Shown here: positions 7,721 through 48,704 of the stretch, piece by piece
How positions within the stretch are numbered: position 1 is the stretch's first letter
Layout of the letters: each line of letters opens with the position of its first letter
From: Rhizophagus irregularis
Taxonomy: Eukaryota
Length of the DNA: 64,000 nt
Reading direction: 5' to 3'
Assembly: GCF_026210795.1 (NCBI RefSeq)
Contig: NC_089430.1
Location: 3,658,001-3,722,000, forward strand
The notes under the pieces: model-generated
The model's input: the letters and a program-made list of their open reading frames with translations, nothing else
Database searches by the model: none
Told to the model about the DNA's origin: nothing
Translations under genes and position numbers: made by a program

Positions 7721-8289
7721 ACATTTTTAATTGAGAAGTATTTTTATATAAGCAATTCACACACTTTACTTCGTACTATGTTATATAGTAAATAAATAGT
7801 AAACTTCGTTATATCAAGATTTTTTTTATATTTAAAATCAGTACCATACTGAAAATCTGTTATATTGTATTATTCGTTATATAGAGGTTCGCTGTAAAGA
7901 GGGGGGACTGTATATGTTTTATTATATTGCAAAAAAGTTTGAATAGGCTTAATTAATAATTTATTTTATTGCTATTATTTGCTTTAATCTTAATGGCATA
8001 CTTTTAATTAATAAATTAATAAAAATTTCACAGGCCAATTTCTTTCCACTTTTTTTCAAATTATTTTCTAGAAATATCTATGATAATTAATTTTTTTTTT
8101 ATTACTGGTTTATTAACCTGTCTTTCTACATGTTTCTTCAATATGTTTTACAATTTTCTATAGAATAGAAACCATTTTCCCAATATTATATAACATTATG
8201 CAAAAATTTCATAAACTATATTATTATAGATAAAGCATAATTGCATACTTTACAGAAACCTTGAAAATATGAGCGATGTTGAATTGATA

Positions 8290-8800
8290 CAGGTACGATA
8301 TAAATTTCATGTCATAATGGTATCAATTTCTGTGATGATATTGTTATAATGTTGATTTGATATCGTTACTTCATCACCATAATTTATCGCGAAAATATCG
8401 TGATGATATCTATTCAAAAGAATATCAAATCGGCACAGCCTTGATATCATTACGATGTTGGTAATTTCAAAAAAAGGATGCGATATTGATTTGATATCGT
8501 CACTTCATCCCACAATTTATCGCCGAGATATCGTGACAATATTTATTTAAAAAAATATCTGATTGGTATAGTCTTGATATCGTTACGATATTGGTAATTC
8601 AGGATAAAAAAAGATGCATTTACGATATTGATTTGATATCGTCACTTCATCCCACAATTTATCGCCGAGATATCGTGACAACATTTATTTAAAAAAAATA
8701 TCTGATTGGTATAGTCATGATATCGTTACGATATTGGTAATTCAGGGATAAAAAAAGATGCATTTACGATATTGATTTGATATCGTCACTTCATTGCCGC
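8290..8800. repeat. Subterminal tandem repeats (~130-145 bp, ~4 copies), rich in GATATC
   Basis: GAT(A/G)TTGATTTGATATCGT(C/T)ACTTCAT recurs near 8350, 8482, 8624 and 8768. Confidence 0.85.
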
Positions 8801-8961
8801 AACTCATTTGTGGTATCGCAACTCATCTGCAATACCGCAAATATTAAACTTTACAACTTTTATATGTATAACGTGCTGCCATATTATTAAAATAAAATTC
8901 TGATATTTTAAACGATTAAGCAATGAAGATTACATAAAAATATACTAATATGGGACTTTGA

Positions 8962-9215
8962 CTACTTCCGTATGTCGCCGCCACAGAGTTGCGGTTGCAA
9001 AGGCTTCCAAATTTTAATAAGAGAATTCTTTTTACAAATTTCTTGTTCTTGTATAGGTTTATTACGATATTGAGAAGACATTTTTAAAACTTGTTTGATG
9101 ATGATTCTACAGGTTAAAATGTGAGTCAAAAAATTTTTTTTTCTTCTCATTTTTTATAAATCAATTCTTTCATTCCTTATTTTTGCATTGATCTTACCAC
9201 ATCATGATCGAGTAT
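8962..9215 (-). pseudogene. Truncated 5' fragment of the MSSQ..SLIKHW cargo-gene family with its upstream motif
   Basis: MSSQYRNKPIQEQEICKKNSLIKIW matches the N-termini at 12465 and 16682. Shared upstream motif TCTTACCACATCATGATCGA. Confidence 0.75.
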
Positions 9216-10520
9216 GATTAGTATGGTGGTCAATTTCGAAAGAAAAAATATATTTTTTTTGATATACTTTGATGTATTTTCCATATGATTTTAGATATTG
9301 AGAATTTGGTAAGAGAAGAGTTTTTTTAATTACTACTTTAACGAAATGTACTAACACTTGTTCTTTTTTTTAGACAGGTTCAAAGCATGGGATTTCAACT
9401 GCTGGAGCTCAGGGGTGTAGATTTCGGTGGATATTTTATAACATTTTTTTTTAAAATCTTTTTTTTTTTAATGTACTATTACTAACAGTTCGTTTCTTTT
9501 TTTTTAAGCGGGTTTTCATGATTGCTTTGACGGAATTTTTCTATTTTGTAAATTATACTAGTAGTTTATGTATTATTATTTAGCCGTATAATAAAATAAT
9601 TTATTGGCATTTTAAAATATATTAATCATGTTCTGTCAATGCAATCTTTACAAAATTGTGAAAATTATCATAAAATGGTTTTAAATACATTGTCAGGATG
9701 ACATATTTTATGATGTTCTGGTAAGCATCGGAAATGGGGTTCTAACGTGGTTTTCAAAATGATTTTTTATTATGTAAAATGTCTTTACAACCATATTAAA
9801 ATTCGAATTTTAAGTACATTTATGATATCATAAAAGTATCATACGATATCTTGAAAAAATTGCCTTGTCCAGTAAAAGTAGTCTCATTTTATTTACGAAT
9901 GTATATTTTAATATACAGTATTTGAAATGTATTAGAGACATTATTCTATTCAATACATTTACTAAGTTTTATCGACATGGTTAAAAATCGGAACGACTTT
10001 AATAATAATTCGTGACGATTTATCGGTAAATTGATCCACGATCGGTAGACGATTATTTGCATGATATGTTTACTATTCGGATACAATTCAATACATTCCA
10101 GCAAAGAATAAATTATATATTAAGCAAAATTATTGATATGAACTTTATTTATGATTAAAAGTGTTAATAATAAAAGTATTAATAATGTAAATGTTAAGTA
10201 TAATTACTAAATTATAGCTCCTCTATGCTAAATATTTACTATAAACTATTGATCGAATAAAAAAAATCAAAGCCAACAACCAAATGCTATAACATTATAA
10301 GACCAACAAGTTTCCACGAATATTTATTTTCTATCCCTTTTGTTCTTAGAGTATTAAAAATCTTCCAGAACCTTAAAGTATTATCGTCACCACCAGCTCC
10401 AGCTACAATGTCCTCTCCATTTGGAGAAATATAAAAATAAAGGACGTGATAAAAATGTAAAATGATATATAATAAAAATATATTATATAAAATTTATAAT
10501 AACGCTTCTCACTAGCCTCC

Positions 10521-12465
10521 TTAATTTGCAATCTTCTTAGTTCCTTTTTTTTTATGCTTTCTTTGCTCTCTTTCATCATCATCATCCTTTTCGTCATCAT
10601 CTTCGGGAAATGACCTTGCAGCACTTATGTAATAATGAGACAGCTCCATTGATCTTGTAACATCTATTTTATCAGTACAAGCAAAGTCCAAATTTATTGT
10701 GTATAAATCTGTATTTGCCATAAAAAAGTTGCGACGAGCTGTCTTGTCATCATCCACCTCCTCACTTAAACAACTAATCCCGTAAATAATAACATTTCGG
10801 AGCGCTTTTTCCATTTCTTCTGATAGTTCATTTGAAACACATGTCAACCACTGACGAAATATAGTTGAAACTGAAACTTTGAATTTTAACTGGGAAATAT
10901 TATCGTTAGTGCAACTATTCTGATATGCGAAAACTATATTCGACTATAATTCGCTCCTCCATCCATCAAAAACTTTTCGAAAACGTTTGCACATAAAACC
11001 AATTTTTTGTTTGTTTTCTTTCTTCTTAGCAAAATGTGGAAATAATTTACTAATTATATCTTCTATCATTAAATTTCTAGTAGAATGGTCAAGGTGCCGA
11101 GTACGAAGGAATAATGCTCTTAATTCAACGTAAATGATATCTAAGACCCATTTTGGGAGAGAACTATAATTATTTTCTAATATTTCACTCATCTGTTTTT
11201 GACTATATTCGCGACTAGTTTTAGGTTCCGTATATTTATCTGGAACATTTGCGTCAGGTCTTGGGGAAGGACTTCTGGGGTAATGACGTTCTTTAGTAAA
11301 ATATTGAGACGGTAACTCCAAATTGTTATTTATGAGTTGTCGTTCGAAATTATCCCTATAATAAAAATAAATGGGCTCAGAACATGTGAATTATAAATCT
11401 TACAGATTTACTATATATATATTTACATTGGAGCGCGATTCTTCAAAGGCGGAGAACGTAGCGGAGAATGTGGCGAAGTCACCGGGGAAGATTCCAGTGA
11501 TGTTATTGTTGATATGGGACTTTGACTTTTCCTGTATTTCTCGGTCATAAAATTGACATACTCGGGTAAAATTAGGCTGAATTCATCCGCTATTTTCTTC
11601 TTAGTTTTATAGGGATCTGAAGATATATTTATTATCTCCTCAATCCTCAAGAACTCCTCTTTCAGCATTTTGTCTACAATTATTAAATATCAAGGTAAGT
11701 GAACTATTCATATCACAAAAAGAAAGAATAATGAATTTCAATCATAGGTCACCTATTTTTTCTTCATCGATTGGTTGAGGTGGTAATTGAGGTTGAGAAG
11801 GTGATTGCGACCATTGATATTCATGATGTGGCCATTGACGTTGCTGATTTTGTTGAGGTTGTTGAGGTTGTTGAGACCATTGAGGTAGAGGTTGTTAAGG
11901 TTGTCGAGCCCATTGAGATAGAGGTTGTTGGGGTTGTTGAGGTTGTTGAGGCCATTGAGATTGAGGTGGTTGCGGCCATTGAAATTGTTGAGGTTGAGAT
12001 TGTTGAGGTTGTTGAGGCCATTGAGATTGAGGTGGTTGCGGCCATTGAAATTGTTGAGGTTGAGATTGTTGAGGTTGTTGAGGCCATTGAGATTGAGGTG
12101 GTTGCGGCCATTGAAATTGTTGAGATTGAGATTGTTGAGGTTGTTGAGGTTGTTGAGGCCATTGAGATTGAGGTGGTTGCGGACATTGAAATTGTTGAGG
12201 TTGAGATTGTTGAGGTTGAGATTGTTGAGGTTGTTGAGGTCCATTGAGATTGAGATTGAGGTGGTTGCGGCCATTGAAATTGTTGAGGTTGAGATTGTTG
12301 AAATTGTTGAGGTTGTCGCGGCCACTGAAATAGAGTTTGGGGTTGAGATTGTTGCGGTTGTTGAGACTGAGGTTGTTGATATTGCGGTTGCGATGGCTGC
12401 CAATGTTTAATAAGCGAGCCTTTTTTACGAATTCCTTGTTCTTTATCAAAATCTTGAGAAGACAT
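10521..12465 (-). pseudogene. Cargo gene A: 3 exons, Q/P/W-repeat N-terminus, C-terminal LFLRTR domain; one frameshift and two nonsense codons
   Basis: MSSQDFDKEQ..SLIKHW followed by SQPQQFQWPQPPQSQWPQQPQQ repeats. Introns at about 11752-11676 and 11426-11358. ELRALFLRTRHLD..WRSEL*(TAG where paralog B has W)..RNFFMANTDLYTIN.. acidic/basic tail. Confidence 0.75.
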
Positions 12466-13739: not shown

Positions 13740-13930
13740 GATGTCAGAATCAACATCAGAAGTGCATATTGAAAGATCACGTCGTATTTTGATAAATTTA
13801 TCGATGTCGCGACGTTATAACCAGAAGTACTTGGAAAATCACAGTTAACTGTGTAGAGGCTTCCATTAAACGAGAAAAATTTTTCATGTGCTGCGTCATT
13901 GCTCCTCTTCCAAATTAATGATTTCTGCTT
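13740..13930 (-). pseudogene. C-terminal relic of the LFLRTR-domain family
   Basis: DAAHEKFFSFNGSLYTVNCDFPSTSGYNVATSINLSKYDV aligns with DARERFFTHTGNLYTVNNIFNNLSGYNIGSSIDLSKYEI in 14847-15677. Confidence 0.7.
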
Positions 13931-14846
13931 GTCTGGTTGATTGAGATTGTTGTCTGTCTCCTCTTCAAAATGTGGACACCTGGGCAATATTGTAAACGAG
14001 GTAGTTGTTCATCCTCATAAGGATATTGCAATCGAAATGGTCTGTAATTACGTCCAAATTCAGGATAATATTGTGATTGAGGTTTATAAATGGATTGTTG
14101 TTGCCGTTGATATTGCTGATGATGTTGTTGTAGATGTTGTTGGTGAAGTTGATGTTGATGTTGCTGTTGCTGTTTTTAAAAATAACCTTCACGATTAACT
14201 CAATTTAATATTTTATTATTGTATTATAAAATCCAATATACTAATAAAAATGATTTGATTTATTTTAAAAAAACACTGCATGATATCTTCGTGATATCAG
14301 TTTGTAATTGTAAAAAAATTATCTAAATGATATCGCCGTGATGTTTCATAATTGTACCAAAAAAAATCTAAATGATATCGCCGTGTTCGATTCAGTTAAA
14401 GAATGTGAATGAATGTTCGTTAATTTTGGTTGCAAATTTGAAGTTTTATTTTGGCAATAATGTTATACAATAGAAATAAAAATGATAAAGAATATACTAT
14501 CTACCCGTCTTCTTTTAGATTGTGAAAGTGAAAATATATATATATATATATATATATAGATACAAAGAAAAAAATTATTGTTGTAGTAACAATGATAATT
14601 ATAATCATTTGACCTGGTTTTTAAAATGATGGTTTTTTACATAGAATTTTTTTTTAAAAAAAAAAGAAAAATTTGCTCAGCACTTTCTTCATAAAAGGGA
14701 TTTTTTAGACATATCGTGGGATTAACAGCACATCTAGACACGTGTTTTATAAATTTACATACGAACCTCTCAAACTTCAACACACGACCAGACACTTTAC
14801 TTTCTACGCTAAAAATTTAAATTGAAAAAAATCTACATAATATATA

Positions 14847-16682
14847 TTATTTTTTTCGCTTTTTAGTAGATTTCTTTGATTTCGGCTTTGGTTCATCCTC
14901 AGAGCTGGAATTTGAATCATCATCATCATTATTTTCAATTTCATACTTTGATAAATCAATCGAAGAACCAATATTATATCCAGATAAATTGTTAAAAATA
15001 TTATTAACCGTATAAAGGTTTCCGGTGTGAGTAAAAAAACGCTCACGTGCATCACTGTTATAAATTTCTAAACAGTGGAATCCAAAAAGAATTAAATTTT
15101 TAAGCGAATTTTCGTTTTCTTGAGATATCGGCTTGTCCGAAAATTTCAACCAAAGGTTGAATATTTCTTCAATATGACGACCTTTTAAGTACGGTTTGAA
15201 ATCAAGACTTTTGTCTTTTTCTTTACGTTTTTGATAAGTTTCGTATCTAAGCTTGATGTTATCCCATAATGTATTTCTCCAGTACAACCAGGTTTTACAA
15301 AAACTTTTTGCTACAATATGTAATATGTCAGGATGATCGTTCATAAAAGTTGGTAACAATGACGCTAAGAAATCTTCTATAATTTGATTATTGTTGCTTT
15401 TATCTAAGTTTCTTGTTCTTAGGAATAATGATTTTAATTCGTTAATCACTATTATTCTTAACCACTTTGGGATAGAGTTTTGCATCGATATAATATTAGA
15501 AATTCTCTTTTGGTTATATGATATATTTGCATCACGATCTGTGAACTTTTCAGGAGAATTTGCATGAGGGCGAATCGATGTTGGATATCTTCGATTCTCG
15601 AGATAGATTTTTGGCAGCTGTAAGCCTGAGCTTAAGAGTTCTTCTTCCATGTCATCCCTAATTTTTAAAGAAAACATTGTTATATGAAGATTACAAGATG
15701 ATAAATATGAAAAAAATATATTTGTTACATTGGATTCATCCGAGGGAGAGTTGAAGATGTAACAGAAGGTATAGCAATACCAAGAGAAGAAGTACTAGTA
15801 CTACTTTGAGTTATAAGAGGAATTTCTTCCAAGGTATCCCTAATTTTAAAAAACATTATGTTAATATGAAGATTATAAGATTATAAATATGAAAAAGTCA
15901 TATTTGTTACATTGAATCCGTCCGTGTGAGAGTTGGGGTCATAACAGGTGTAGAAGATGAGGAAGTGCGGCTTCGTTCTTCGCTAGCATAACGCTTGCCT
16001 CTGTGGATCATCTGCTCGATTTGATCATGTAAATGTTCAGGGAGCGTCATGGCAAAGCGTTCTGCAATAGATTGTTGGACATAAACAGGATTAACGGCTC
16101 TGGACATGATGTCCTCGATTTGTAGAAATAGTGTAGCGAGTAAATTATCTATATGATAGAAATAACGTTACAAGTTATTGTTCTGTTATTGAAGATTTCT
16201 TCAAATACCGAATATTATTAAATAATACAGACCAATTTCTTCATCAGAAAGTAATTGTGTTGAAGGATGCTGCAAGTATTGTGAGGAATACGAGGGATAT
16301 GGAAAGGGGTATGGAGACTGTTGTTGTGACGAGGGGTATGGAGACTGTTGTTGTGACGAGGGGTATGGAGACTGTTGTTGTGACGAGGGGTATGGAGACT
16401 GTTGTTGTGACGAGGGTATGGAGACTGTTGTTGTGACGAGGGGTATGGAGACTGTTGTTGTACCGAGGAATGATGCGGATACAAGGGGTATGGAGAATGT
16501 TGCCGTGACGAAAAACGTTGATAGGGATATGGAGGTAAATATTGTTGTGACCATTGAGGTTGAGATTGCGATTGCGAAGGCGATTGCGAAGGCGATTGCG
16601 AAGGTTCCCAATGCTTAATAAGAGAGCTCCGTCTATGACTTTCTTTTTCTTGTACAGGCTTATTACGATCTTGAGAAGACAT
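14847..16682 (-). CDS. Cargo gene B: 4 exons, (SPYPSSQQQ)n N-terminus, C-terminal LFLRTR domain; 1-bp frameshift in a G-run of the 27-bp repeat (~16414)
   Basis: Exons ~16682-16232, 16148-15910, 15839-15730 and 15658-14847 with GT-AG borders. IPKWLRIIVINELKSLFLRTRNLD. Paralogous to gene A with matching intron positions (EEI|G and PM|R). Confidence 0.75.
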
Positions 16683-17797
16683 TTTTTGATAATGGTTTCT
16701 ATGAGTTAAAAAATGTGGATCAAAAATTTTTTCAATTTTTTTTTTTTATTTAAATAATTTTAATCTTACCACATCATGATCGAGTAAAAATATGGTTAAT
16801 TTCGAAAATAAAAATTATTTTTTGCCATTGATCTATTACATCGTGTAATACAGATTTTTTTAAGGGAAAAAAAATCTGATTAATTATTTAATATAATGAT
16901 GGATATTGTGATTAAATCATGAACAAGTAATTTTTTCATATCGTGATTATATTACTTTTTTTCCTTAAAAAAATCATACGGTACAATAAGAACAATGGAA
17001 ATAAGAATTTTTTTTTTCTTTTCGAAATTAAATAGATTAGATTGAGTCAATAATTAGACTTTTCTTTTTTTCGAAATTAATCTCATCATATGATTACGGA
17101 TATTGTAATTAAATCATGATCGAGTAGAATCTTTTTTCAATTTTTCTTTTTTTTCTTTGTGATCGAATAAAATTCCATATCGTGGTTATACACCTATTAG
17201 CAAAAAAACTTTTTTGCAAAAAAAAATTGTATTGATATCGGTTTCCTAATAACACTACGGGTTCCTTGAACCCTCTCAAGCATCTAAAGTTAAACTCTCT
17301 CATAAACACAGAGAGCGCAACTTACCTTAATATGACATGAATACTAAATATGCTTAGTAGTGAGAACGAAAAATTAAATTTTGGGAAAAGGGGAAAGATA
17401 AAATGGATCAACAAACTGAAATGGATTTTAACACATGAATCCTTCAGATGAAATTACTATGTTAGTAGAAAATTCAGGAGGTGGAAATAAACAGTATAAT
17501 TATAATTTTGCTTCGCCACAATAACTTTTTATGATGGTAACAATCGTTATATAATTTTGATTATTTTCTACATGACCAAAATAAGTATATCGTCTTTTTA
17601 ACAAAATTTTTTAAGATCATCAAAATATTATTTTGATATTAGCAACTGAATGTTGGAACACATGATCGGAAATCAATAATTTAAGTATAATACTTATACG
17701 AAAAAATAGAAACTATCATGATGTTTAACTGAACAATTTATAGCATATTTTTTTTTTATTTTATATTATAGTGTATTATAAGTTTATTATATTATTA

Positions 17798-17975
17798 GGG
17801 GAGTTACACATATCACGTAATATTCATTTTATTATAAACCTTACCCCCCCCCCTGTTAGATTTCATAACCAATCAAATTATAATATTTATAAATCATATG
17901 ATTTAAATAAGTGTAACGTAAAATTTTAACTACCCCCTCCCCCCTATAATAATTACATAATATGTGTAAGCTCCC
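17798..17975. mobile_element. PIF/Harbinger-type MITE, copy 2
   Basis: TTA TSD, same TIRs and internal sequence as 6725-6906. Confidence 0.85.
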
Positions 17976-17999
17976 TTATTATCATAAAAAAAAATTGTG

Positions 18000-18705
18000 A
18001 CCCGTCTTGCATAATTGCGCTTCTTCACTCCAATGTAAATAAAATGTGATAAAAGATAATTTTTTTATTATAGTACTACCTAATATCATAAAAACGCTAA
18101 CATTTTATTTATTAGGGATGATATTGAAAAAAGCTTGTTGAAGCTGGATTATCGTTACCATTAAAATATCTGGAAATTTGATCATTTTTCAAAATTTGAT
18201 TTGACGAATCGTTCCAAGTACATCGTTCCTAAATAATGGCTTCAATTCGCCGAAAATTATCTTTCTAATCCACTTCGGTAGTGATTTGTACGACTCAAAA
18301 AGCAAACGTGCCATTTGAACTTGGGTAATGCTGCCTGAATTGTGTGGATCAATGAATTCTTTTTAAGGATACGCTGACGTGTTACAAATTTATAATAATT
18401 TGCGTAACGTCCTTTGGAAGAAATTAGTAGAAAGGTACATTAAATATAAAAATAGTAAAGAGAAGATTAAGCCGAATGTAAATCTAAAGAATCGACAAAT
18501 TAAGGAAAATACTAACGGAGGAGAATGAGAGCGCACTTAAAATCTCATCATCTTTGGGTTTTATTGTATTGAGAATTTATAAGATGCGCACGACAAATTT
18601 TTCTCATTTTACGGAAGCCTTTTCACAGTTACTTGTGATTTTCCAAGCTCTTCGAGATATAATATTGCGGCTTCTATGGATTTATCAAATTTTTATGTAG
18701 TTTTT
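18000..18705 (+). pseudogene. Inverted, decayed paralog of cargo genes A/B
   Basis: TAG|GGATGATATTGAA encodes RDDIEK..EAGLSLPLKYLE (cf. RDDMEEELLSSGLQLPKIYLE). Later ALKNLIIFGFYCIE..DAHDKFFSFYGSLFTVTCDFPSSSRYNIAASMDLS. Confidence 0.7.
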
Positions 18706-18971: not shown

Positions 18972-19541
18972 ATGGGAAAACCATCATTACATTCTAGGAA
19001 AACGGCCTGGCGTAGACAAAAAAAACGACAATATAAAAAATTTAAACAAAAAGAAATTGAAATATCTGATCTCCAGATACAGCTCCAGGATTTCCAAAAA
19101 GCTGTTGAGACAGCCGGTGAACAAGTGATTTCCAAGCTAGACAAAACTGAGCGTGAAAACGCAAATCTATTGAAGTGGATCGATATTTTTTCAAATCAAA
19201 TCTCAAGTCAGGAAGAAGAGATATATAAGCTTGAATTAAAGAGTTATTTAGCACAATCAACATCGTCTCTGTCATCTCCACCACAGCCACCATCATCATC
19301 ATCATCATCACAATTGTCACCGACATCTTTTAAAAGCATGGATGAGTACTTTAAACATAATCAAGTTAGTAATTTTTTAGGTATTGTGCAATTTTTAATG
19401 ATTTTTATTTTTATAATTAATGAATTGTTCTCATTTTTTAGTAAAAGAAATCTAGTAGTTCATTATTTTTTTTTTTTTGAAACCATTTTGAACTATTCTC
19501 ATTTTTTTTTAATAAAAGAAATTTTTGTAATATTGAAATAA
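18972..19541 (+). CDS. Hypothetical protein with basic N-terminus and coiled coil (true 3' end probably spliced near 19365)
   Basis: MGKPSLHSRKTAWRRQKKRQYKK followed by a heptad-like segment EISDLQIQLQDFQKAVE..LELKSYL and a Ser/Pro tract. The hydrophobic tail looks like intron read-through. Confidence 0.5.
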   Translation: MGKPSLHSRKTAWRRQKKRQYKKFKQKEIEISDLQIQLQDFQKAVETAGEQVISKLDKTERENANLLKWIDIFSNQISSQEEEIYKLELKSYLAQSTSSLSSPPQPPSSSSSSQLSPTSFKSMDEYFKHNQVSNFLGIVQFLMIFIFIINELFSFFSKRNLVVHYFFFFETILNYSHFFLIKEIFVILK

Positions 19542-20237: not shown

Positions 20238-21794
20238 TTATGAAAAAAGATGGAGTTTTAAAGAGCTAGCAATGTTTCTTCCGCTACGGGAAGGAATTTC
20301 TAGATCTTCTGTAATAACATCTAACTCCTTAACCTTTTCTTTGATATTTGCGCTTTCAGTTTCAACCCAGACTATTTTGAAGCATTTTCTGGAGAATTCT
20401 ATTAATTTATCTAGTGAAGTTTCCGATAATTTTGTAAAATCGATGGCTGAAACATATCGGCTTAAGATTCTCTTTAAAACCACCTCACGTGATATGAAGT
20501 TGTTTACTTCCTCGTCGGTAGGATCTGAACTTTCCGTATATTCACTTTAATAGAAAAAAAGTTTAAATCATTAAATCATTGTAGTAAAAACAACATAACG
20601 ATATGAACGTATCGATCACCTTTCTACAATTTGTCGAAATTCTTTTACTAATGTTGAAAGTACATTTTTCAATTGATATCGATAGTCGGAAAATGATTTA
20701 CGATATCGTTCGTTAATTGACTTCGCCACGCTTTGATAAGCATCATGCCCAAAAATTTTTTGTGTTATTTTATCAAACGCATGATCGGGCGGATTTCTAG
20801 TTCGCAAAAAAAGGCATTTCATTTCTTCGTCAATAAGACGATAATTATCCTAAATAGTAATAATATCAATAATACATAATACATCAGTAATTCTGCTGTG
20901 TAATAACGATTGTTCTTAATTGGTAAGAATGTAACAACCAAAATAAGAAATGGACTTTACGTTGTCAGATGATGACGAAGTCGAGGTGGTTAGTGGCAAA
21001 TTTGTTGATGGCTGCTTCGTCGAGACATCAAGCATTTTGTTTGCCAGATGTAGTACACTTGAATGTAAGACCAACCAATTGCAAATTTGCAATTGATTGG
21101 TCATTGCGCCAAACTGAACCAGAATTTCTTCTTCACTCTCTAGAAGTAATATTAAATGAGAATAAAATTATATTCATTAATTATGTTCAGATTTTATGTT
21201 TTACCGCTTTCATCATTTTCATTTTCTTCTTGTTCTTTATCTTGCTCTCTCCTATCCCTCTCTCTTCTCTCTTTCTCTCTTCTCTCTTTTTCTCTTCTTT
21301 CTTTTTCTCTTCTCTCTTTATCTCTCCTTTCCATCTCTTTCTTCTCATTTTCTCTTCTTTCTTTTTCAATATTTCTTTCTTCTTGCTCTGGAAGCATATC
21401 TTCATTATAACGAAGTAAATTTATTTTTAAATAAATTCGCAGAAATATCATTTCAATTGAATAATAAAACAATTATTATAAGGTATTTACCCATAATAAT
21501 TCTTTCAATATCATCATCTTGTCTATTATTACCTTCTCCAATATCTACATCTTGTCCATGTAAATTATCTTGTTCATGTTCACTTCCTTCCTCTCTCCTT
21601 TCATCTCTTTCCTTATTATAATCACGTGAAGAGTTGGCAACATATGTACGAATAGTTTTGGTAGTTTTTGCAGCTTTTGTTGCCTTGTCTTTTAGGTATC
21701 ATTATAATAGTATTAGGCGCAATTACTATATAAAATTTCAAATCAAAAATATAATTTTATTACCTTTTCCTGTTACTCCTCTGCGTTTAGTCAT
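20238..21794 (-). CDS. Cargo gene C: multi-exon, charged E/R/K-rich linker, TNQLQICNWLV motif, LFLRTR domain
   Basis: MTKRRGVTGK start with GT-AG introns. TNQLQICNWLVLH, EEMKCLFLRTRNPP, IPSRSGRNIASSLKL*. Clear paralog at 36516-38284. Confidence 0.75.
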
Positions 21795-21929
21795 GATAAA
21801 CAAACAAGGTGGTACTTATTGGTATTGTGCTAGTAGCAACGTAAAGAAATAGGTGATTCCTGACGAAACGAATACAGCATCATCTTTATTTATTTATAGA
21901 GATTTCTCCTAATATTAAGAAAAAATTAC

Positions 21930-24300: not shown

Positions 24301-24469
24301 ATATCACAATCGTAATATTATAAAAAAAATTACTTTGTACTTTTTTCCCAAAGAATTCAATTGATATTTTTTTAAAGTTTGACTGTCCATATCTTATCAG
24401 TTACATATAAAAATACCACATCTCAGATCAGAGTTTTTAGATTTCTAATAAAAAAAAGTTAGAAAGAAA

Positions 24470-24748
24470 ATGTCCTTTCCCAAACCTAGTAGAGAAGAAA
24501 CAGGTATAAAAAAAAAAATACCTCATATATTAATTCATTAAATAACGTATGATAATATTCATATAATTTCTTTCATATATAGATAATACGATATTGATCT
24601 CACTAGACGATCTAATAAAAGAACAAACCCGATTGAACAATCTTCGCCAAACCAACATTAAAAAGAAACGGCAACGTCCGTCTCGTAACAACCGAGCGAA
24701 GACCATGGGAGACTGGGCTCGGATGGTGAAAAAAGTATGATCATTTGA
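24470..24748 (+). CDS. Small 2-exon basic hypothetical protein (<70 aa)
   Basis: ATG at 24470, intron 24504-24582 (GT..AG). The spliced frame stays open: MSFPKPSREET|DNTILISLDDLIKEQTRLNNLRQTNIKKKRQRPSRK.. Confidence 0.45.
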
Positions 24749-35447: not shown

Positions 35448-36515
35448 TGTTAACAATCAAAATCAAAATTCTAAATTTTTATGAATATACAAAAATTAAT
35501 GCCTTATTCGTATATTTGCTTATAATGCAATAAATATTATTATACTGACCTATACGGTGGCTATAGTGACTGAAATATACGTATGTTGACTGAGCTAAGC
35601 TGAAGCTGAATCTCTGAATCGCCAAGTAAAAAATACACCAATCTTTTTTATATTGATATCTTGAAATTCAACAAAATCCCGGTTTCACCTTAATATGTCC
35701 TTTTCTTGATAAGGATAATCAAAATACACAAACATATATGAGTCAAACACAACGGATGCATTTTTCTTGATAGAACGTGACACAATTATTTTAGTTGTAT
35801 TACTTTCGCATCGATCAAATCACAGCACGTAAATAAAATAAAAATATTACAATAAAACAATAAAATAAATATAATAATGTTTTTTAATATATGTAAATTT
35901 ATTAGTGAAGTTGGAAAAATAAATTTAAAGGGGAATAAAAGAATAAAAAGGAGACGATAAAGTTGGAAATATAAAATAAAAAAAAAGTCAAGCCAACACC
36001 GATTATCGGTGTGGTATGATACCAATGATTGTTACTTAACAATGTTAATGTATTTCGTACAGAATTGCATATAATTTATTTTAATTGTAAAACTATTGTA
36101 AAAATTGAAGTCTGCATAATTAAATAGTAATCGCGAATTAATCATCGGTAGATCAGTATTCTATATAAGGTTAAAATTTATATTGTTCTTCCTAGCCAGA
36201 AATCAATCGGTAAATTAAACTAAATAATAGTTATCAATCGGTATTATTAAATAAATCAGGTGACCTTGTAGTAATTACATCTACTTGCGTCACATAATCT
36301 ACAACATGCAGATTTTATCAAATATCACTTTAACAAAATTTATCATGCATCATCGTGTATTATTTGTTATTAAGAAAAAAGAATTCTCAATGATGATATT
36401 ACTTTATATATCATCACATCATACATCAATAATATTCTGTCACAACAATAATATCACACCAATAATTTTTATTACAATATATTGCAACTTCACTGCATTT
36501 TATTACATTTTTTTA

Positions 36516-38284
36516 TTAAAATTTCAGTGAGCTAGCAAAATTCTTTCCACTACGGGACGGAATTTCTAAATTTTCCGTATTTTTATCTAATCTTTTGATT
36601 TGATTATAGAAAGCCTTAGTGTTGGTTTCGTTCCTTTCCTCCCACGCAATACTAAAACATTCTCTCGAAAATTCAATTAGTTTGTCCATTGATATTTCTG
36701 AAATTTCAGATATATCAACCGCAGAAAAATAGCGGTTAAGAATTCTCTTAATAGCAACTTCACATGAAATAAAATTGGTAATCTCAACTTGAGTTTCTGT
36801 TTCTGTAATAGTTCCTCCTCTTTATAAAAAAAAGGAAAGAAATTCATATTGACATTAGTTATAAATACAATTATAAATGCAAATAATATTATATTGATTA
36901 CCTTTCTAATTTTTTTTGAAATTCTCAGACTAATTCTTCAATTGACACCCTAAGCTGATAACGATAGTCTGAAAAGGATTTTCTACATCGATCTATAATT
37001 GATTTTGCTGTGCTACTATAAGTTTCAAATTCGGGAAAAATTTTTCGTACTAGTTTTTCAAAAACGAGACCAGGTGGGAACCGAGATCTTAAAAAAAGAC
37101 ATTTTATTTCTTCATCGATTAACCTATATTTTTCCTAAATAATAATAAAAGTTTTTGTGAAATATTTATGAAAATTATAGTCACAACAACTGAATGTATC
37201 GATCGAAATACAATAAACGCTTACATTGGATGCGGTTGATGGCGCGTGTGCTGGCTGCTGCACTGCTAGTGCTAATTGTGACGTACTATCCTTCATATTT
37301 AACATTTGAGTGGCTAGCTGCAGGATATCCGGATGATCAACTAGCCAATTGCAGATTTGCAATTGGTTTGTCATCGATTCGAATTGGGGGGGAACTTGAC
37401 GTCATATTTATTTTATTAATAATAAATGAAGATATTTATGTATAACAAAATATTGTATTAAACAAGATTTTACCAGAATAGTTATCGTCTTCTTTTTCTC
37501 TATAATCTTGATCATCTTCTCTTTCATTTCTTCTCCTCTTAATTCTTTCTCTATTCTCTATTTCTCGTCCTTCTTGTTCTTGATGACGACAGAGGGGATT
37601 CTGACGTTCTCGTTCTTGTTCTTGACGACCACGGTGAGGATTCTGACGTTCTCGTTCTTGTTCTTGACGACCACGGTGAGGATTCTGACATTCTCGTTCT
37701 TGTTCTTGACGATCACGGTGGGGATTCTGACGTTCTCGTACTTCTTGTTCTTGACGATCACGGTGGGGATTCTGACGTTCTCGTACTTCTTGTTCTTGAC
37801 GACCATGGTGAGGATTCTGCTGATCTTTGGAAAGATCTTATCATTATTTATTATTGTTTTATTATTGTGTGTTATTATCGTTTGTTTTTAATAGTTTTTA
37901 AGTAAAAATTAATATCTTCAATTGTATATAATAAAATGCAAAATTCATTAAATTCATAAATTAAGATTCTATGACTGACCTCCGAGAAAATCTATTTCGT
38001 CATCCTCATTGCTTATTTCATCGTTAATTCCTCCATCCTCATCGTTAAATTCATCATTAACTTCTTCGTCTGTTCCCGATACAGTTTTTGCTCGACCTTG
38101 ATTAGTTTTCGCAGCTTTTGATTGACTTTGAGCAATTCCTGCAGCTTTAATTCGACTTGCCGCGGACTTTGACTTTTTAGTAGGTTCTGTTATATAGATA
38201 GCATTAAAACCGCTATTCAAAAATCAAAAAAAAATCAAAAAAAAAGGAACCAAAAAATATTCAAATATTACTTGATCGAACCAT
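36516..38284 (-). CDS. Cargo gene D: multi-exon paralog of gene C with NPHRDRQEQE(V)RERQ repeats
   Basis: TNQLQICNWLVDHPDILQLA, EEIKCLFLRSRFPP, KRILNRYFSAVDI, IPSRSGKNFASSLKF*. 42-45 bp repeats at 37575-37820. Confidence 0.75.
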
Positions 38285-41200
38285 GATTTAAGAATACCAA
38301 TCAGATCAGAAAAATCTTAACCCATGGGAAAATAAAGTGTCTCCTGCTCTATTGTATTTATATCTGACTCTAGCAGTATAAGAACCTGTTTATTGGTAAT
38401 CATGCCTTGTCAAACCATTTTCTGAATGCCACTTTTCTGAATATACTTCTCCCTAAATCAATTATCTAAAATGCCAATTTTCCAAATAGGATCTTTCCCT
38501 GAAATATTCACGAATCTGTATTTCCTGAATTCCAAATTCCTGATGCTCAATTTCCCAAATCCCGAAACCTAATATATCCTTATACCCAATATCCCGAATG
38601 GGCAATTTCCCGAAATATAAAATAATATACTGTAATCTCTTTTAATTCATATGATTTATTATAAACTGTGTAATAGATAATGGATGAGAATTATTGTGAT
38701 AAATACTTTGTTTCCATAAATCGGAAATTGGCTGATACAGATGTACATATATCGTAAACAGATCAACGGATCGATCTGTTTATATACTGCAGTCACGATA
38801 ACAAAATTTTCCGGTTATGCACTTAACTGCTGTAATCATTGACCTATCGCATATTATTTAAAGTAATGTAAGAATATTAAATAATTGGCCAAAGATATGC
38901 ACATATAAGATCAAATGATAAAAGAATGAAGTCAAAAAAAAAAAAAAATTTTTTTAAAAAAAAAAAATTTGAAAAAGGAGTGCAGTGCAAGGAGTACAAA
39001 AAAAAAATTTAAGGGGCCGAAATGCAAAGCGGATAACCCAAATCAACCCGGTAACTTACGTGATCAAAGTATGTATCCTGGGAAATTTTCATAAGATAAA
39101 AAGGAAAAAAATTTGTGTATTATTAATTTGGAACATAATCATTGTGCTATAAACCCGATTTAGGTAGTAACTAATATGTATTTTATTTATATTTAAAATT
39201 TTTCTTCGTTTAAGAGCAATGATATAAAAAACAACATAAAAAACATATTTTATATACAATATACAGTGTATTCGACTTTTTAGTATACTGTAACGTTTCT
39301 CCAAATAAAAGAATTGGTATTGATATTGACCCAAAAAGAAAAGATGTAGTTAAAATTGACCGTAGCCCAATTGTAGAACAATATCCAAAATATTGTGTGA
39401 ACGCTAAAACGAATTTGCGTATTAAATATATTTTTTACAACTCCAACGGATGATCATGCATAATTAGATAAGCCATGTAACGGTTGTTACAAATAAATTT
39501 ACAAAATGTTTATATTATACTGTACGTGAATTTTATGATCTTTATATATATGTAAGAAAAATATTTAAAGAATTTATTATATAATCTTAATTTTATTTAT
39601 AGATAGACAATAATTAATTAATTGATTAGGTTCGTCAACGAATTATATATACTTTAGTAACAAACCTATTTCTGTTTTCTTGTCTAATACGCGTTGCTAA
39701 CTCCTGCACGCTATAAATTTTTTCCTAACGAATATCACATCTCCCTTTTCAAAATCTTTCTCAATATTCCTATCTGAATGAAGGCTTTGATTTTCAAATA
39801 ATTATTTTTTTGGATCATTAGCGTCTAATATTGACACAGCCGTAACCTCTTACTCTTGAGTGAGCCTTTCGCTAGAACCATGTAGAAACTTGGACATTTT
39901 TTGATAAATAGTATTTGTGGAGGTTCGGGTGCAATTGGTGTAAAAAGTTTTTTTGTTAAAATATTTTTTTACATGAAATTAATGAAAAAATCTAAAGGAT
40001 GATGACTTTTTATACCTTTTTTTATAATGTTAGAAATCTTCTTTTTTTCAAATTCATTCAAAAATTCAAAATTCGTTAAATTCGATCGTTGAAAAAAATT
40101 GATAATTTAATAATTGAAAAGAAGGAGCCTCAAATTTTCATTTTCCCTATGGAAAAAACATCATGAGGCATGAGACTTCGTTATTTCATTATCATTCTCA
40201 CGAGGCAATCACTTGCCATTATATTAAACGTCCGTATAAGGAACTGTAACATTTTTTTTCGTGAAATGATTTTTTTAATTAATTAATAAATCCAAAAAAA
40301 ATTTTTTTTAAGGAGGTTAAAAAAAAAAAAATCTTGGATTGAAACGTAATGATATAAGTTACAGGTCAGCAGCATCAGTGTAAATATATAGTTATATATT
40401 TATTATTAAAACATGACCTCTCCTTCAAGGAAAAAGAATCATACAATATATTTTAGATATTTTAACATGAATATTTGTAATTGCATACTTCAATCCCATA
40501 ATTCACAGTTTTTTATAAATTATTAAATTTTTTATTGTAGTTACAAATCGTTACCATCCTAGCAATAGGCATTGTACAATTGGTAGATCTAGCTCTGCTC
40601 TACCATTTCGTCTAACGATGGACATTGTATAACTGGTATCATTTTTTTTTGGGTTGTCATTAGTACCGACGTCCTCGTCGTGCAACCTGGGTACTAGTAA
40701 TATGCTAGTAGCAAACGGGTACTACTAAAATTGAAAAGAATGAAGCTGAAGCAAACAATTAAACTTTTTTTTATTGTTATTACACGTGAATCTTTTTTAC
40801 TAGTTATGAATTTTTTTTATCCGCTAATAAAAAACTTTTTTCACATGGTTTTTTCACGTTTTTTTTATATGTATACATTTTTTAAAATATTGATGAATTT
40901 TTTTATGTGATAATTATGTAAACAAGTCATTTTTTTTATAAAATAAATATTTCCTAAAATGATAATATTCCTCGAGTTTGATCGTTCGATTAATGATCTC
41001 AAGGCTATCTCTTTTTTTTGTATATAAGAACAAAAAAATGATTATTTTTTTAGTACTCCAACGTAGCGGAAGAAAATTTTTTAGGTATGAATTTATAAAA
41101 TTTTTTCTTTATATAAATTGACTTCAATAATTTAATTTATTTTTATTGATAATTTATTTAATAGAAAAATCAAAGCAGTGGTTTTAATTTTTTTTTTTTA

Positions 41201-41889
41201 TTAATTCAACGCGCAGTCAGCAGCAGAAAAAATTTTTTTAGGTACGAATTTAATAATTGACAATTCATATAGAGAGACAATTCATAAGCTACTATTAACA
41301 ATTAATTGATTAAAGCATGTCGCCACCTGGATCATCAAGAAAAAGGACGAGAAAGACCTATTTCCAGCGTCATACTCATCGTCAAAAAGACAAAGAAGAA
41401 AGAAGATGGAAAGATAAATCCTATGAATTGGAAAAGAAATATGATAATCTTTTGGAAAATTCTGCATTTTTTCTTATTTGGGGATTTTTTATTATTGTAG
41501 TTTTTATTTTTATTTTTATTGCTATTTTAATTAATAAATACTATTAGTATAAATACTTCTAATTTCATTTGCTGATTTTGATCACTTTTGACTATATTCT
41601 CAAACCTGACTTTTTAAAAATGATTGAACCCAACTGTACCACCACAGATTTGATGGTGATGCAGGAGACTAAAATCAAAAATTTGACCATGATCTACATT
41701 AGATATTGGTCGAATAATGCACTAATTAAACGTCACGCGTATTTAAAGTTTAAAAAAGGATCATCTTTTTTAAACTCCCCTTTCCCCTTCCACTTTCCCT
41801 CCTTTCGTTCGTCCTCCCTTTCCCTTTCGTCCTTCCCTTCCCCTTTCGTTCTCCCCTTTTCTCACACCTTCTTCCGCCTCTTTTTCTTG

Positions 41890-43570
41890 GAAGTAATGTA
41901 AGTTTCGTTTCGAAACTTACATATCTTTTTTTTAATTTTTTTTTTAATCTTTTTAATTTTAATTAAGAAACGAACTAACGTTTCTTTTCGTTATTTTTTT
42001 TATAGGACGTGTAGGAGGACGCCGGCTTGTTCACGAAACCGGACTTTAAGGTAAAAAACGGGGAAAGGGGAAGGAGGAAGGGGTTTTGGAACCTAAAATT
42101 CTTAAGAATCTTGGTTTTATTTATTTATTTTTTTTATTATTTTGGAACGGTTTACTAACCGTTCCTTTCTTTTTTTTATAGGCTCGGTGTATTTCCGACG
42201 AATAGATGAACCAAGATTCGTAAGTACGAGTACGAATCTTGGTTTATTTATTTTTTTTTTTAATATTATGGAACGGTTACTAATAACCGTTCCTTTCTTT
42301 TTTTAGGTTTCGGTGGAGCTTCCGAGTTCCGAAGAACAGAAAAACTAAGATTCGTAAGTAAGTACGAATCTTGGTTTTGTCTTTTTTAAATATTATTAAC
42401 GGTTACTAATAACCGTTTTTTTCTTTATTTTTTTAGGTTCGGGTGTCTTCCGAAGAACGGAAAAAGAGGACCAAGATTCGTAAGTACGAATCTTGGTTTT
42501 GTTTATTTTTTTTTAATATTATGAACGGTTACTAACCGTTCTTTCTTTTTTTTAGGTTCGGGTGGGCTTCTGAAGAACGGAAAACCCAAAGATTCGTAAG
42601 TACGAATCTTTAATTTTTTTTATTTATTATTACGAACGGTTTACTAACCGTTTTTGTATATTTTTTTATAGGTTCGGGTGGGCTTCCGAAGAACGAAAAC
42701 CCAAAGATTCGTAAGTACGAATCTTTACTTTGTTTTTATTTTTTATTATTACGAATGGTTTACTAACCATTCTTTCTTTTTTTTTATAGGTTTGTGGGCT
42801 TCCGAGGATCGGAAAAAGGAGAACTAAGGTTCGTTACGAACCTTGGATTTTTTTTTATTATTATGAACGGTTTCTAACTGTTCTTTTTCTTTTATTTTTA
42901 TAGGTTCGGTTGGCTTCCGAAGATCGAAGGAACCAAGATTCGTAAGTACGAGTACGAATCTTGATTTTTGTTTTTTTTTATTATTTTGGAACGGTTTACT
43001 AACCGTTCCTTTCTTTTTTTTAATAATTTCTTACGTTTGTAGGACGGTTCCTTGGAATTTTCTTCAGCTTTGGTAAGTTTCTTTTGAAAATTTATTTCTG
43101 GGAAAGGGAGGTGCAGCTGGTGTTTTTTCATAGTAATTAGATAAAATTTTTTTTTTACACCATAGCCACCATGTACGCTAGGAAAACGGAATCCTTCGTG
43201 TTGCATAACTCGCAAATGTTACGTGTAGGACGTGTAGATGTCTTGGAATTGGTAAGTTTTATTTTTTTATTATTAATTTTGATTTTTTTTTATTAATTTT
43301 TTTATTAATTTTTTTTATCTTTTAATTTGTAAAAATCGATAGTTTCACACTTCCCGGATCGAATTAGTAAGTTTTTTCACTTAAAACTTTTTTTAAAATT
43401 TTTTTTTATTATTATTTAATTTTTTTATTATCTTTTTTTGTAGTTTCGGCTTCCTTATCCCGGATCAGTAAGTTTCAAAACGGTTCGTTTTGAAACTTTT
43501 TTTTTAAGTTTAATTTTTCCGAATTTTTATTTCAGATCGGACTTGGACTTTATTTTTTTTCTTTAGGTAT
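41890..43570 (+). repeat. Tandem array of ~12 micro-exon/intron units (~115-130 bp) with hairpins over the 5' splice site and branch point
   Basis: Unit: TTTTTAG|GTTCGGGTGGGCTTCCGAAGAACGGAAAACCCAAAGATTC|GTAAGTACGAATCTTT..GAACGGTTTACTAACCGTTC..TAG. Confidence 0.88.
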
Positions 43571-44350
43571 AGTTAGACGACTTTTAACATTCGTTCTTTT
43601 CAAGATGTGATCACGTGATTTGAACTTTATCTTTTTTTTATTTATAATATTAGATAAATGCTAATATACGTGTACTGTAGCATTTAATAAATTAATAAAT
43701 TTGAAATTGAACTAATATTAAACTAAATTAATAAAAAAAATATTGAAGAATAAATTGGTCATCTTTAGAGCTTAAAATTTTGTCGAATAATATTTATCTG
43801 AACTTGTGCCTTAATTTGACTACTATTAGACCTATAGTCAAATTTAGGTTGAACGGTAGTGTAATGATAGTTGAATATTCTTTCCGTATAAGACGATTGG
43901 CACCCGAACTGCGCCAAAAAATTCGACCTTAATTTGACTTGTCTTTTTTCAACTAGTGTAAAAAAATCGTTTTAGCAATATTAAACCGATATCAATATGA
44001 TAATTATTTGTTGTTTTAGCGATATCAACATATTATTGATTTAACATTTTTAAAATAATATCGTTATGATATATTTTAATACTGAATTGATATTATATCA
44101 ATATCGTGTTTTTTCACATTTTTTTAAAAAAATATCATTGTCATTTTGACGATATTAAAGTGATATCGATTTGATATTTATTTAAATAAATATCTCTACG
44201 ATATCTTTTTGATATATCAAATCAATATTGGAACGATATCATCCTAATATTATAATGATATCATCTGCAAATCGATATCACTACGATATAGAATTAACAT
44301 CATTATTATATCAATTTGGCATTGTTTAAAATTTTGAGGTTTCTGTAAAG

Positions 44351-45102
44351 TAGATGGAGGCGCAGATCAAAGATTATCACAACCTTGTAGAGGTTTCGCT
44401 ACTATGTCCTCAAATTTTAGAAATTTATTGACTAATTGGTATATTACTGAAGACAAGGTATCAAATGAACAAGAACCGGAAGGAAATGAAGAAGGTTTGT
44501 ATTACAATTTTATAATAATAATATTTCCGCAATTATTAACGTATTTTTAATTTTATATAGCCATTTCATCTCCAGTGGATTTTATTACAAATATTATCTT
44601 AAAGAGGAGCTTATCCCGTCAGGATCGCGAAAATATCATGAAAAATTTGCCAAATTTCAAATCTGAGCTGCTTCTTTCATTTATGGACATTGGACAAAAG
44701 TCAGCTCTTATATATTCTCAAATGAGCTGGTATGAATTGGCGACATACACTATGGAAGAAAGCGATGGCGTATTTTCCAAAGTACATCTTCATATTGGTG
44801 ACGTCATAACAATACACGAGAAAGACAGTGGTGAATGTTATGCGATTATAAAAGGGATCTTCAAATACAAAGGCAATGATGATAAATATTATGCCTTTAT
44901 TACTATTGATTGGTTTGACAATATTAACAGAATTCACAACGTATTGAAATGTCCTCTTTTTCGCATTCAGACAAGCCAAGACATTCGCTGGAGAAGAATC
45001 TTCCCGATATCAATAATTGACCACGTACAGAAAGTTCACTGTGTCTATGATACGAAAATTGATTTGTGGATAAAAAATAATTATTATTTTACGGCTATAT
45101 AG
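44351..45102 (+). pseudogene. 3' part of the outer transposase with C-terminal BAH-like domain
   Basis: Resumes at DGGADQRLSQPCRGF, continuing FAIRHLV (cf. FAIRHLVDGGIDYRLSQSCNGF in the inner copy). LHIGDVITIHE..YAIIKGIF..FITIDWF. Confidence 0.88.
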
Positions 45103-46334: not shown

Positions 46335-46414
46335 TAGTATTTAATATTTGTGACGAAATCCGATAATGTTGTGCGTAACTACTCCATTATGTTATAACGA
46401 TATCGTCACGTTGG

Positions 46415-46860
46415 TTTATGTTAACCATCCGGGAGAGAGATGTGTCTAATTTACCAGGTACGATCGTATCTTTAATTTCGCAGAAACTTGCACCATAATC
46501 CGTGTACTTATTAATTTAACAATTGTCACAAAGTTTCGATACAATATTAGTGTCATAACAGTTAACCATCTGGAGAGAGAGAGATGTCTAATTTACCAGG
46601 TACTTATCTTTAATTTCGCAGAAACTTGCGTTGTATGTAATACAGACTCTTGTCAATTCAGTATTTGATATAATATTAGTGTCTTATGTTAACCGTCGGA
46701 GAGAGAAGTAATTTACCAGGTGCGTCGTAATCAGGAAACTTACATCAATTCAACATTTATAATATTATTGTCATACCGATATTGTCACATTGTTTTATGT
46801 TACTAGAGAGGGATGCACCTACATAATTTACCAAGTACGATTAAACTTCGCAATACTTAC
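46415..46860 (+). repeat. Degenerate tandem repeat (~125-140 bp, 4 copies)
   Basis: GTTAACC..GGAGAGAGA..TAATTTACCAGGT recurs near 46420, 46561, 46688 and 46800. Confidence 0.75.
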
Positions 46861-47129
46861 TATCAATTCAACAATTGTGAATCAATAATGACGGAACGCG
46901 ACTACTTCAAGCTGTAATAACAATGATATCGATACGTTGTTTTTGTTTTTCATTTTGACCATCATAATTGCATATTAATAATATATACGGCATTATCAAT
47001 TAATAAAAATTATTGAATGTACTACCTATGGTTCACAATTATTTCATGACCCTCTAAATTCTTGTCAAATATCATCTTGATACTGTTTAAATGTCGTCCT
47101 GATATCTTAATAATATTTTTAAATGAAAT

Positions 47130-47720
47130 AATATTTTTAAATGATATCGTAACAGTACGGTTTGATAATTATATCGATACATTTTCAACATCATCATAAC
47201 ATCTTCACGAAAACATCACGATTTTTAAATGATATTGTAACAGTACAGCTTTGATAATCATAACGATACATTTTCAACATCATCATAACATCTTCACGAA
47301 AACATCACGATTTTTAAATGATATCGTAACAGTACGGTTTGATAATTATATCGATACATTTTCAACATCATCGCAACATCTTCACGATAACATCACGATT
47401 TTTAAATGATATCGTAACAGTACAGCTTTGATAATCATAACGATACATTTTCAACATCATCGTAACATCTTCACGACGACATCACGATTTTTTTGAAGAT
47501 ATCGCGACGATATAGTTATGATAGTCTTAACGATACCTTTCCAACATCTTCACAATATCAAATTACGAAATCAATATGATATTGTTCTGATATCAAAATA
47601 TTACCGATTTTAATATCGCGAAGATGTTGGAAAGGTATCGTTAAGACTATCATAACTATATCGTCGCGATATCATCAAAAAAAATCGTGATGTCATCGTG
47701 AAGATGTTGAAAATGTATCA
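47130..47720. repeat. Subterminal 89-bp tandem repeats ending in a ~90-bp-arm inverted repeat
   Basis: TTTTTAAATGATAT(C/T)GTAACAGTAC at ~47133, 47222, 47311 and 47399. 47465-47550 is the reverse complement of 47620-47710. Confidence 0.85.
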
Positions 47721-48704
47721 TTAAAATATTGTGGCAAATTTGAAGATTTCAGCAAAGTAACTAATTGTAAATAGACATGTAAACAAAAAATAATCATTAT
47801 ATATAAATATGTTTATTGTATAATCAGATAAAATTATTTATCCAATTTATTATAATTATTTTTTCACATATTATACCCTTGTAGACTATGATTTTTTAGA
47901 AGACCAGGCCTCAAAGGACCCTTTAACTATCACAGTTGATAATATCATTAAACTGCCACTTGAAAAGATTATGCCAATCATTTGAAGAGAAAGGATTTAC
48001 CATTTATGGTAACCATTTAACACTTTGAACCTCTACAGTAAAGCTTTTAGTACTTCCAGTGGTATTGTAAAATGACCATTGGAACAGAACACTACTCTGA
48101 AATATGTAAGTAGTAACTTTAAAGACAGGATTTTGAATATTCTAAAAACCTTATAAGAAATGTTAAAAATGTGTGACCTAACTGTATATACTAATTTACT
48201 ATGGTGCAGTTTAACTACTCTAATTCTTATATTTTCATATTATTGATAATAGTGTTTGCAGTAAAATTTGTTTAATTTCTGTGATCAGCAGAATTAAACC
48301 TATGACTTTACCATAATCAGACTTAATAAAGAAATGCGATCTTAACAACTATACTAGAATGATTAACCTTTAATAAAAATTTATTTTTGCACAAATGCTT
48401 ACAAACATCATAGTTAGCTTAAACTTATTAGAAGATAAACTACTGTAAAGACATTATACCTAAGACTTTACCATCTATGGACCCCATCTAACATGTGAAC
48501 CTTTGCAGTAAAGTTCAACATACCCTTAGTGATATCGTAGAATGACCACTAAGACAAGAGTCCATCTGAGTAGTATGCAAGTAGTGACTACTTAGACAGA
48601 AAAATTGGCTTCCCATTGCTTTAGTTTCAGAACGGAGGACACCATGATTCTCTGTTAAAATGTGCAGCCTAACTGTACATACTGATACACCATGATGCAG
48701 TTCA

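Follow-up and report, generated by a model that had tools for sequence, protein, structure and literature searches.

Nested, decayed large DNA transposons with CTTT ends in Rhizophagus irregularis, likely members of an uncatalogued fungal CMCT lineage

Transposons of the CMCT (CACTA/Mirage/Chapaev/Transib) clade encode transposases with C(2)C and H(3-4)H motifs and mostly have CA..TG ends and target duplications of 2-5 bp (Kojima, 2025, PMC12730594; here and below, published systems are described from the available extracts of the papers cited). Giant members are found among the Plavaka elements of red algae, which measure 17.4-19.1 kb and carry three accessory genes (10.1101/2025.02.11.637652). 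We analyzed a 64-kb stretch of Rhizophagus irregularis DNA (64,000 nucleotides of contig NC_089430.1, hereafter the window), which carries two large elements, A and, inserted within it, B. These belong to a real, well-bounded transposon family. Our preferred explanation, which we consider probable, is that A and B are nested, decayed large transposons, likely moved by cut-and-paste through a DDE transposase of predicted RAG1/Transib fold, and that they likely represent an uncatalogued fungal CMCT lineage.

The A/B family shares with the CMCT clade a D-D-E triad in a predicted RNase H fold, the CxxC and H..H motifs and a 2-bp target duplication. In contrast, its ends start with CTTT and do not form CA..TG termini, a rule to which PlavakaA is also an exception (PMC12730594). 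Plavaka elements resemble it further by their weak Pfam similarity and by having giant members with accessory genes, but their termini are TGT..ACA (PlavakaA) or CATCA..TGATG, compared with CTTT(A/G)C in A and B (PMC12730594). ESTA elements also fall in the CMCT clade, are RAG1-like by structure-based search and have a TA duplication; however, among the entries listed, which come from rust fungi and one other basidiomycete-type entry, 5' ends start with CAC and sizes are 6.6-12.1 kb (Kojima, 2025, PMC12730594). The A/B family, with TA in five of eight two-ended copies and TT in one, is set apart from ESTA by its termini. Fungal EnSpm elements have CAC ends and 3-bp duplications (PMC12730594), neither of which is seen in A or B. 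Like CACTA/EnSpm elements, the family nevertheless combines short terminal repeats and subterminal arrays with a transposase gene that is spliced and is accompanied by a second gene. CACTA elements have a two-protein design, in which TnpA binds subterminal repeat arrays. Finally, Transib, ProtoRAG and RAG1 are the closest solved folds to our model of a family transposase and share its CxxC and H..H motifs; they differ by an identity of only ~10% and by the lack of a BAH domain in the chains compared. Transib elements have CAC ends and 5-bp duplications.

Ends, nesting and target duplication

A 20-bp motif, CTTTRCWGAAAYMTYVAAAW, is shared by the ends of both elements. With up to two mismatches, it was found exactly four times in the window, at 8248 and 29120 on the forward strand and at 44350 and 47757 on the reverse strand. 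The mean expected by chance is 0.37, and four matches were reached in none of 100 shuffles. TA adjoins each of these CTTT(A/G)C ends, which are the four that the original prediction had placed there, and a scan with a profile built from 33 ends gave no fifth end in the window. The 5' and 3' ends had been described as asymmetric. This view needs a correction: they are identical at 16 of 22 positions, in A and in B alike, and are therefore imperfect inverted repeats of ~22 bp. The expected GATATC-rich subterminal repeats are present, with 27 GATATC in the four 600-bp end zones vs. 0.39 per 600 bp elsewhere.

The sizes initially proposed, ~24 kb and 15.2 kb, are correct (Table 1), but the two elements are nested, B being inserted in an exon of A's transposase gene. 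When B and one TA are removed, A reads FAIRHLVDGGADQ and the reading frame of its transposase is restored; the frame is broken when both TA copies are kept or both are dropped. Moreover, the empty junction of B was found as DNA in the four sequencing runs examined, from four studies, and database proteins read through it. Taken together, the frame test and the empty junction fix the ends of B and its 2-bp duplication. The 3' junction of A was found with 0 differences in the same four runs. An apparent absence of A's flank from the runs (shares of 0.66-0.71), which hinted at transfer, was thereby ruled out. Run X2 contains one further 3' end of A and one further 5' end of B, each with TA beside it. 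Neither the B-in-A junction of the window nor an A-empty allele was among the matches listed for the runs; because of the latter, the pairing of 8248 with 47757 is one that we infer.

Other copies were sought by scanning metagenome contigs with the terminal patterns. This gave 112 loci with 118 matches, 94 of them distinct, and one match at a contig edge was dropped. Family-type inner sequence accompanies 25 distinct matches, and the 68 without it are attributed to chance. Flanks differ among the 25 true ends, conservation starting at the C and stopping at position -1. The preceding dinucleotide is TA in 10, TT in 6, AA in 4, AT in 3, and AC and TC in one each; TA precedes only 3 of the 68 chance matches (p = 7e-5). 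Two loci (L043 and L055) are 99.6% identical over 3.3 kb and have different flanks. [quoted passage not shown] They are flanked by TA/TA (three), TT/TT (one), AAT/AAT (one) or no duplication (one). Thus, as the MITEs show, two 5'-type ends and a short repeat array can make a complete element. Counting both window elements, a 2-bp duplication is found in six of the eight two-ended copies. The target duplication is 2 bp, as first proposed; TA is preferred and not fixed, since TT also occurs. Ends defined as ACTTT..AAAGT without duplication were ruled out, A being at -1 in only 56% of the 25 ends. No 3'-type end of a long element was recognized in the 112 loci, with a pattern that excluded B's own 3' end. 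In viral contigs, the terminal patterns gave 0 matches and 1 chance match; no transposase relative was found in viral contigs or prokaryote genomes, and there was no Rfam match.

In the runs, contigs of the element body are ~12-24 times as deep as those of the junctions, a ratio that gives no copy number; the protein clusters, which have 123 and 41 members, are nevertheless in line with a multicopy family. Some two-thirds of the repeats of Rhizophagus have no classification (PMC11075540), and an abundant family among them is now defined by its ends, duplication, MITEs and genes. Both window copies are decayed and non-autonomous. Part of their length is decayed or inserted DNA and not dedicated cargo; beyond the transposase and accessory genes, the remainder consists of repeats, fragments and insertions. 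Between 44351 and 47757, A>G, T>C, C>T and G>A transitions are the most frequent changes that separate the window copy from the runs, and the CpG observed/expected ratio is 0.46 in transposase B vs. ~1 in the flanks, which suggests methylation-driven decay. Runs X21-X24, which bear the same species label as the best-matching runs, contain almost none of A's words, and the family may be patchy among strains.

The transposase and its relatives

In agreement with the original prediction of a spliced transposase of ~1000 amino acids ending ~2.7 kb from the 3' end, A encodes a protein of 1,084 residues, with four GT-AG introns, and B one of similar size; the stop codon lies 2,655 bp from the 3' end in A and 2,743 bp from it in B. 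One correction is that both genes carry a premature stop. The segment 28360-28439, considered as a disrupting insertion, proved to be an 80-nt GT-AG intron. An intact R. irregularis protein of 1,084 residues shares 99.1% identity with transposase A, and the best match of transposase B is 66% identical. All 105 matches of the sequence search come from Glomeromycota, many labelled "BAH domain-containing protein". Intact A-type copies are annotated in Rhizophagus, often under this same name; many such labels in these fungi therefore designate transposases mistaken for host proteins.

An R. clarus member, P0003, was modelled (mean predicted local distance difference test score, pLDDT, 65; N-terminal 270 residues unresolved). 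RAG1 is the top Foldseek match of the model (E = 4e-7), with Z 14.9, a root-mean-square deviation (rmsd) of 4.0-5.4 and 358-378 aligned residues. Z is 13.7 with ProtoRAG and 10.9 with Transib. The transposase is thus predicted to have a RAG1/Transib-like fold; sequence searches of solved structures gave nothing useful. Residues 295-433 of P0003 adopt in the model an internal BAH fold (Z 12.3, rmsd 2.1, 109 aligned; pLDDT mostly 78-94), as anticipated. This segment lies within the RAG1-aligned range, ahead of the first catalytic D. If confirmed, a chromatin-reader fold in a RAG1-like transposase would offer a testable handle on chromatin-guided target choice. Profile comparison of the internal and C-terminal BAH-like regions gave P 1.1%. 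The catalytic, CxxC and H motifs, initially likened to those of CMC transposases, are conserved across 41 aligned proteins: D465 (41/41), D549 (40/41), E820 (35/41, with five gaps), C568 (40/41), C571 (41/41), H796 and H800 (40/41 each). All 41 keep a segment of 119-512 residues at the BAH position.

A profile search gave 3,117 matches, 150 of them listed, from which 27 long distant ones were taken. Of the 20 that were looked up, 15 are named, and among the matches listed these are all from Pezizomycotina (Morchella, Ascobolus, Geopyxis, Orbilia, Xylaria, Aspergillus and lichen fungi). In a core tree of 43 sequences, drawn without an outgroup, the 16 Glomeromycota rows group with support 92/96. 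Between species, six R. clarus and six R. irregularis members of the transposase A family are 97.2-98.9% identical over ~1,000 residues, which is close to the 98.4-100% found within species. From these transposase comparisons, horizontal transfer between the two species is possible, and this one family, at 97-99% identity, is a candidate for between-species transfer.

According to the best of the rival explanations, which we regard as rather unlikely, the family would be a third, divergent branch within Plavaka, next to PlavakaA and PlavakaB, and curated Rhizophagus libraries would already list it under Plavaka, CMC or Transib. Plavaka (PF18759) is the only CMCT-type Pfam family that scores, in one of 28 near relatives (E = 1.2e-5) and in 7 of 27 distant ones. 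However, the seven distant scores (16-24.5 bits) lie under the 26.3 cut-off and concern the second half of the model only, and the window exons do not score. Transposase_21 and Transposase_24 were not detected in 26 window frames or in the 28 near and 27 distant relatives, and an Atlas feature lead for Transposase_21 stayed under 0.9. The profile check thus gave Plavaka scores that are sub-threshold in the distant relatives, no Transposase_21 and a C-terminal BAH-like domain below the cut-off. PlavakaA, which also departs from CA..TG, makes 2-bp duplications, and its ends, TGTCRGAAAA, loosely resemble the CTTT(A/G)C ends; nevertheless, the termini of A and B match neither Plavaka type. A published R. 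irregularis library is reported to include families of Plavaka, CMC and Transib, and the A/B family may be filed there, but its elements are limited to 17 kb (Oliveira and Corradi, 2024, PMC11075540). A Plavaka-adjacent lineage with atypical ends, as first proposed, thus remains an apt description.

Neither these termini nor a comparable transposase with a BAH domain was found described in the published literature, in a search with Repbase, Dfam and the curated Rhizophagus library outside its scope; the family is not described in the available parts of PMC5751038, PMC11952901, PMC13465315 and PMC8245031. The initial claim of a poorly described giant lineage holds in this respect, but giant size with accessory genes was known from the red-algal Plavaka elements. 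The CTTT ends, the inserted BAH domain, the accessory family and the reach into Pezizomycotina are new; large size, accessory genes and TA duplication have precedents.

Accessory genes and the proposed mechanism

Between 8989 and 18702, A contains two long copies and several remnants of an accessory gene, X, followed by a gene Y; B has Y only. X and Y are homologous by profile comparison (P 89.8%, E = 1.8e-6). An X domain is also found just inside the 5' end at four other loci (L006, L043, L055, L056), and the first exon of X at L028. At L043, the 5' end, X genes and a transposase remnant follow each other in the same orientation over 9 kb. At L056, three X-like genes occur in 8.8 kb inward from the 5' end, with no second end; a Mrr-like nuclease frame lies among them at 4762-5298 (Pfam E = 3e-7). 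No X was found at L062 over 3.3 kb inward. The dedicated accessory gene set of the original prediction was overstated: what both elements and other copies have in common is a single family of paralogues, with fragments besides. SET, methylase and oxygenase families were not detected in these genes, and X matches no Pfam family. The X model (pLDDT 78) has the homeo-prospero domain as its best match (Z 5.7, rmsd 3.6, 132 of 139 aligned; next match 4.0), and Y scores weakly on Myb/SANT (E = 0.15). As a lead only, X and Y may be helix-turn-helix DNA binders.

A second rival, in our opinion unlikely, holds that X and Y were captured from the host, or form a mobile family of their own that is carried along passively, and are not functional partners of the transposase. 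In the window, the majority of their copies are broken; A also carries a WD40-like fragment and L056 the nuclease as further passengers, and similar clusters of 69-164 members occur in Mucoromycota (score 0.88; a lead only). On the other hand, X/Y genes recur in A, in B and in several divergent families, where the 5' end always lies on one side of them and the transposase on the other, as paralogues 28-56% identical. The weakest rival, quite improbable, is that A is not one 24-kb element and that the 8248 end belongs to a transposase-less, X-carrying relative beside a copy truncated on its 5' side, the end of which disappeared in the 21.9-26.2 kb block: gene Y points towards the transposase in B but in the opposite direction in A, the repeat block separates the two genes in A, and TA on both sides of A is weak evidence because TA is preferred, but no further terminus exists in the window (profile scan; two mismatches allowed), L043 joins the 5' end to X genes and a transposase remnant, and L056 has three X-like genes on a single end. 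The block itself, ~4 kb of ~600-bp tandem units, is flanked by the divergent Y and transposase genes, and its motifs were absent from the six loci checked.

Under the preferred explanation of nested CMCT-type transposons, the transposase would bind and cut at the ~22-bp terminal repeats and insert the element with a 2-nt stagger at A/T dinucleotides. By analogy with TnpA of CACTA or with the anti-silencing factors of VANDAL, it can be proposed that X and Y proteins bind the GATATC-rich subterminal arrays, and would help to pair ends 15-24 kb apart or offset silencing. Anti-silencing factors of VANDAL are mentioned in a recent study (10.1101/2025.02.11.637652). The BAH domain may contact nucleosomes and bias target choice. 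Large size would be due for the most part to accessory genes that duplicated in tandem and decayed, to repeats and to passive insertions, and intact A-type transposases elsewhere in Rhizophagus may supply the enzyme for the window copies. More tentatively, the family could be part of a new superfamily-level CMCT lineage in Glomeromycota and Pezizomycotina, with a RAG1-like core and BAH readers, whose giant members use a tandemly expanded homeodomain/Myb-like family that binds GATATC arrays for end pairing or silencing escape, and of which one family recently jumped between Rhizophagus species.

Several observations weigh against the preferred explanation. A has no observed empty site, and its two ends could come from separate insertions; a second copy of full length was not seen, and the size of 24 kb applies to the window copy only. 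Of the eight two-ended copies, two depart from the 2-bp duplication, one being flanked by AAT/AAT and the other by none. The C-terminal BAH-like domain has a Pfam E of 0.002-0.009, below the cut-off, and the core tree was made without Plavaka, EnSpm or ESTA references. DNA binding by X and Y is suggested by weak matches (homeo-prospero Z 5.7; Myb/SANT E 0.15), Foldseek gave no match for X under E 0.001, and none of 29 X matches is named R. clarus, where A-type transposases abound.

Feature map and other elements of the window

Table 1. Features of elements A and B in the window.
Feature	Positions	Strand	Remarks
Element A (outer)	8248-47757	+	24,277 bp minus B and one TA; TA at 8246-8247 and 47758-47759
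A 5' terminal repeat (CTTTACAGAAACCT...) and GATATC-rich subterminal repeats	8248-8800	+	same end at another insertion, L028
Remnant N-terminal exon, accessory gene X	8989-9129	-	
WD40-like host gene fragment (weak)	10290-10439	-	Pfam WD40 E = 0.02, below cut-off
Accessory gene X1	10521-12465	-	Q/P-rich first exon and helical domain; premature stop
Accessory gene X2 remnant	13775-14180	-	
Accessory gene X3	14847-16682	-	last exon open; predicted helical domain
~190-bp repeat	17795-17982	.	97% identical copy outside A, 6722-6913; likely separate small insertion
Rearranged X remnants, both strands	18231-18702	.	
Short open frame	18972-19541	+	coiled-coil-like stretch; assigned to no family
Accessory gene Y of A	20238-21794	-	distant paralogue of X
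Repeat block between gene Y and transposase	21900-26200	.	tandem and inverted repeats
Transposase A, 5' part	26299-29119	+	introns 27281-27368, 28360-28439, 28822-28903; stop at codon 652; split by B
Element B (nested)	29120-44350	-	15,231 bp; TA at 29118-29119 and 44351-44352
B 3' terminal repeat (CTTTACTGAAAT...) and subterminal repeats	29120-29750	-	
Decayed reverse-transcriptase-like fragment	30250-31520	-	presumably DIRS-like, by its motifs; one piece scanned, no Pfam match
Transposase B	31864-35447	-	1,098 residues; three introns; stop at codon 689
Accessory gene Y of B	36516-38250	-	premature stop
Tandem array, small exon-intron-like units	42106-43022	+	oriented against B; dedicated cargo improbable
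B 5' terminal repeat and subterminal repeats	43950-44350	-	second TA-flanked insertion, run X2
Transposase A, 3' part	44353-45102	+	intron 44495-44560; C-terminal BAH-like domain
A 3' subterminal repeats (89-bp tandem unit) and terminal repeat	47100-47757	+	second TA-flanked insertion, run X2

Other decayed elements surround A. A non-long-terminal-repeat (non-LTR) retrotransposon with weak reverse transcriptase and RNase H matches occupies 607-5368, and a Helitron (Pif1-like, Helitron_like_N and DUF6570 matches) occupies 56400-60700. Two tandem arrays, at 2557-3870 in the non-LTR element and at 42106-43022 in B, are made of ~40-nt exon-like units with intron-like spacers and hairpins near the branch point. 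Foldback or MITE-like sequences with long inverted arms are found at 50502-52554 and 61247-61713, the first of which encloses a 50-bp tandem array.

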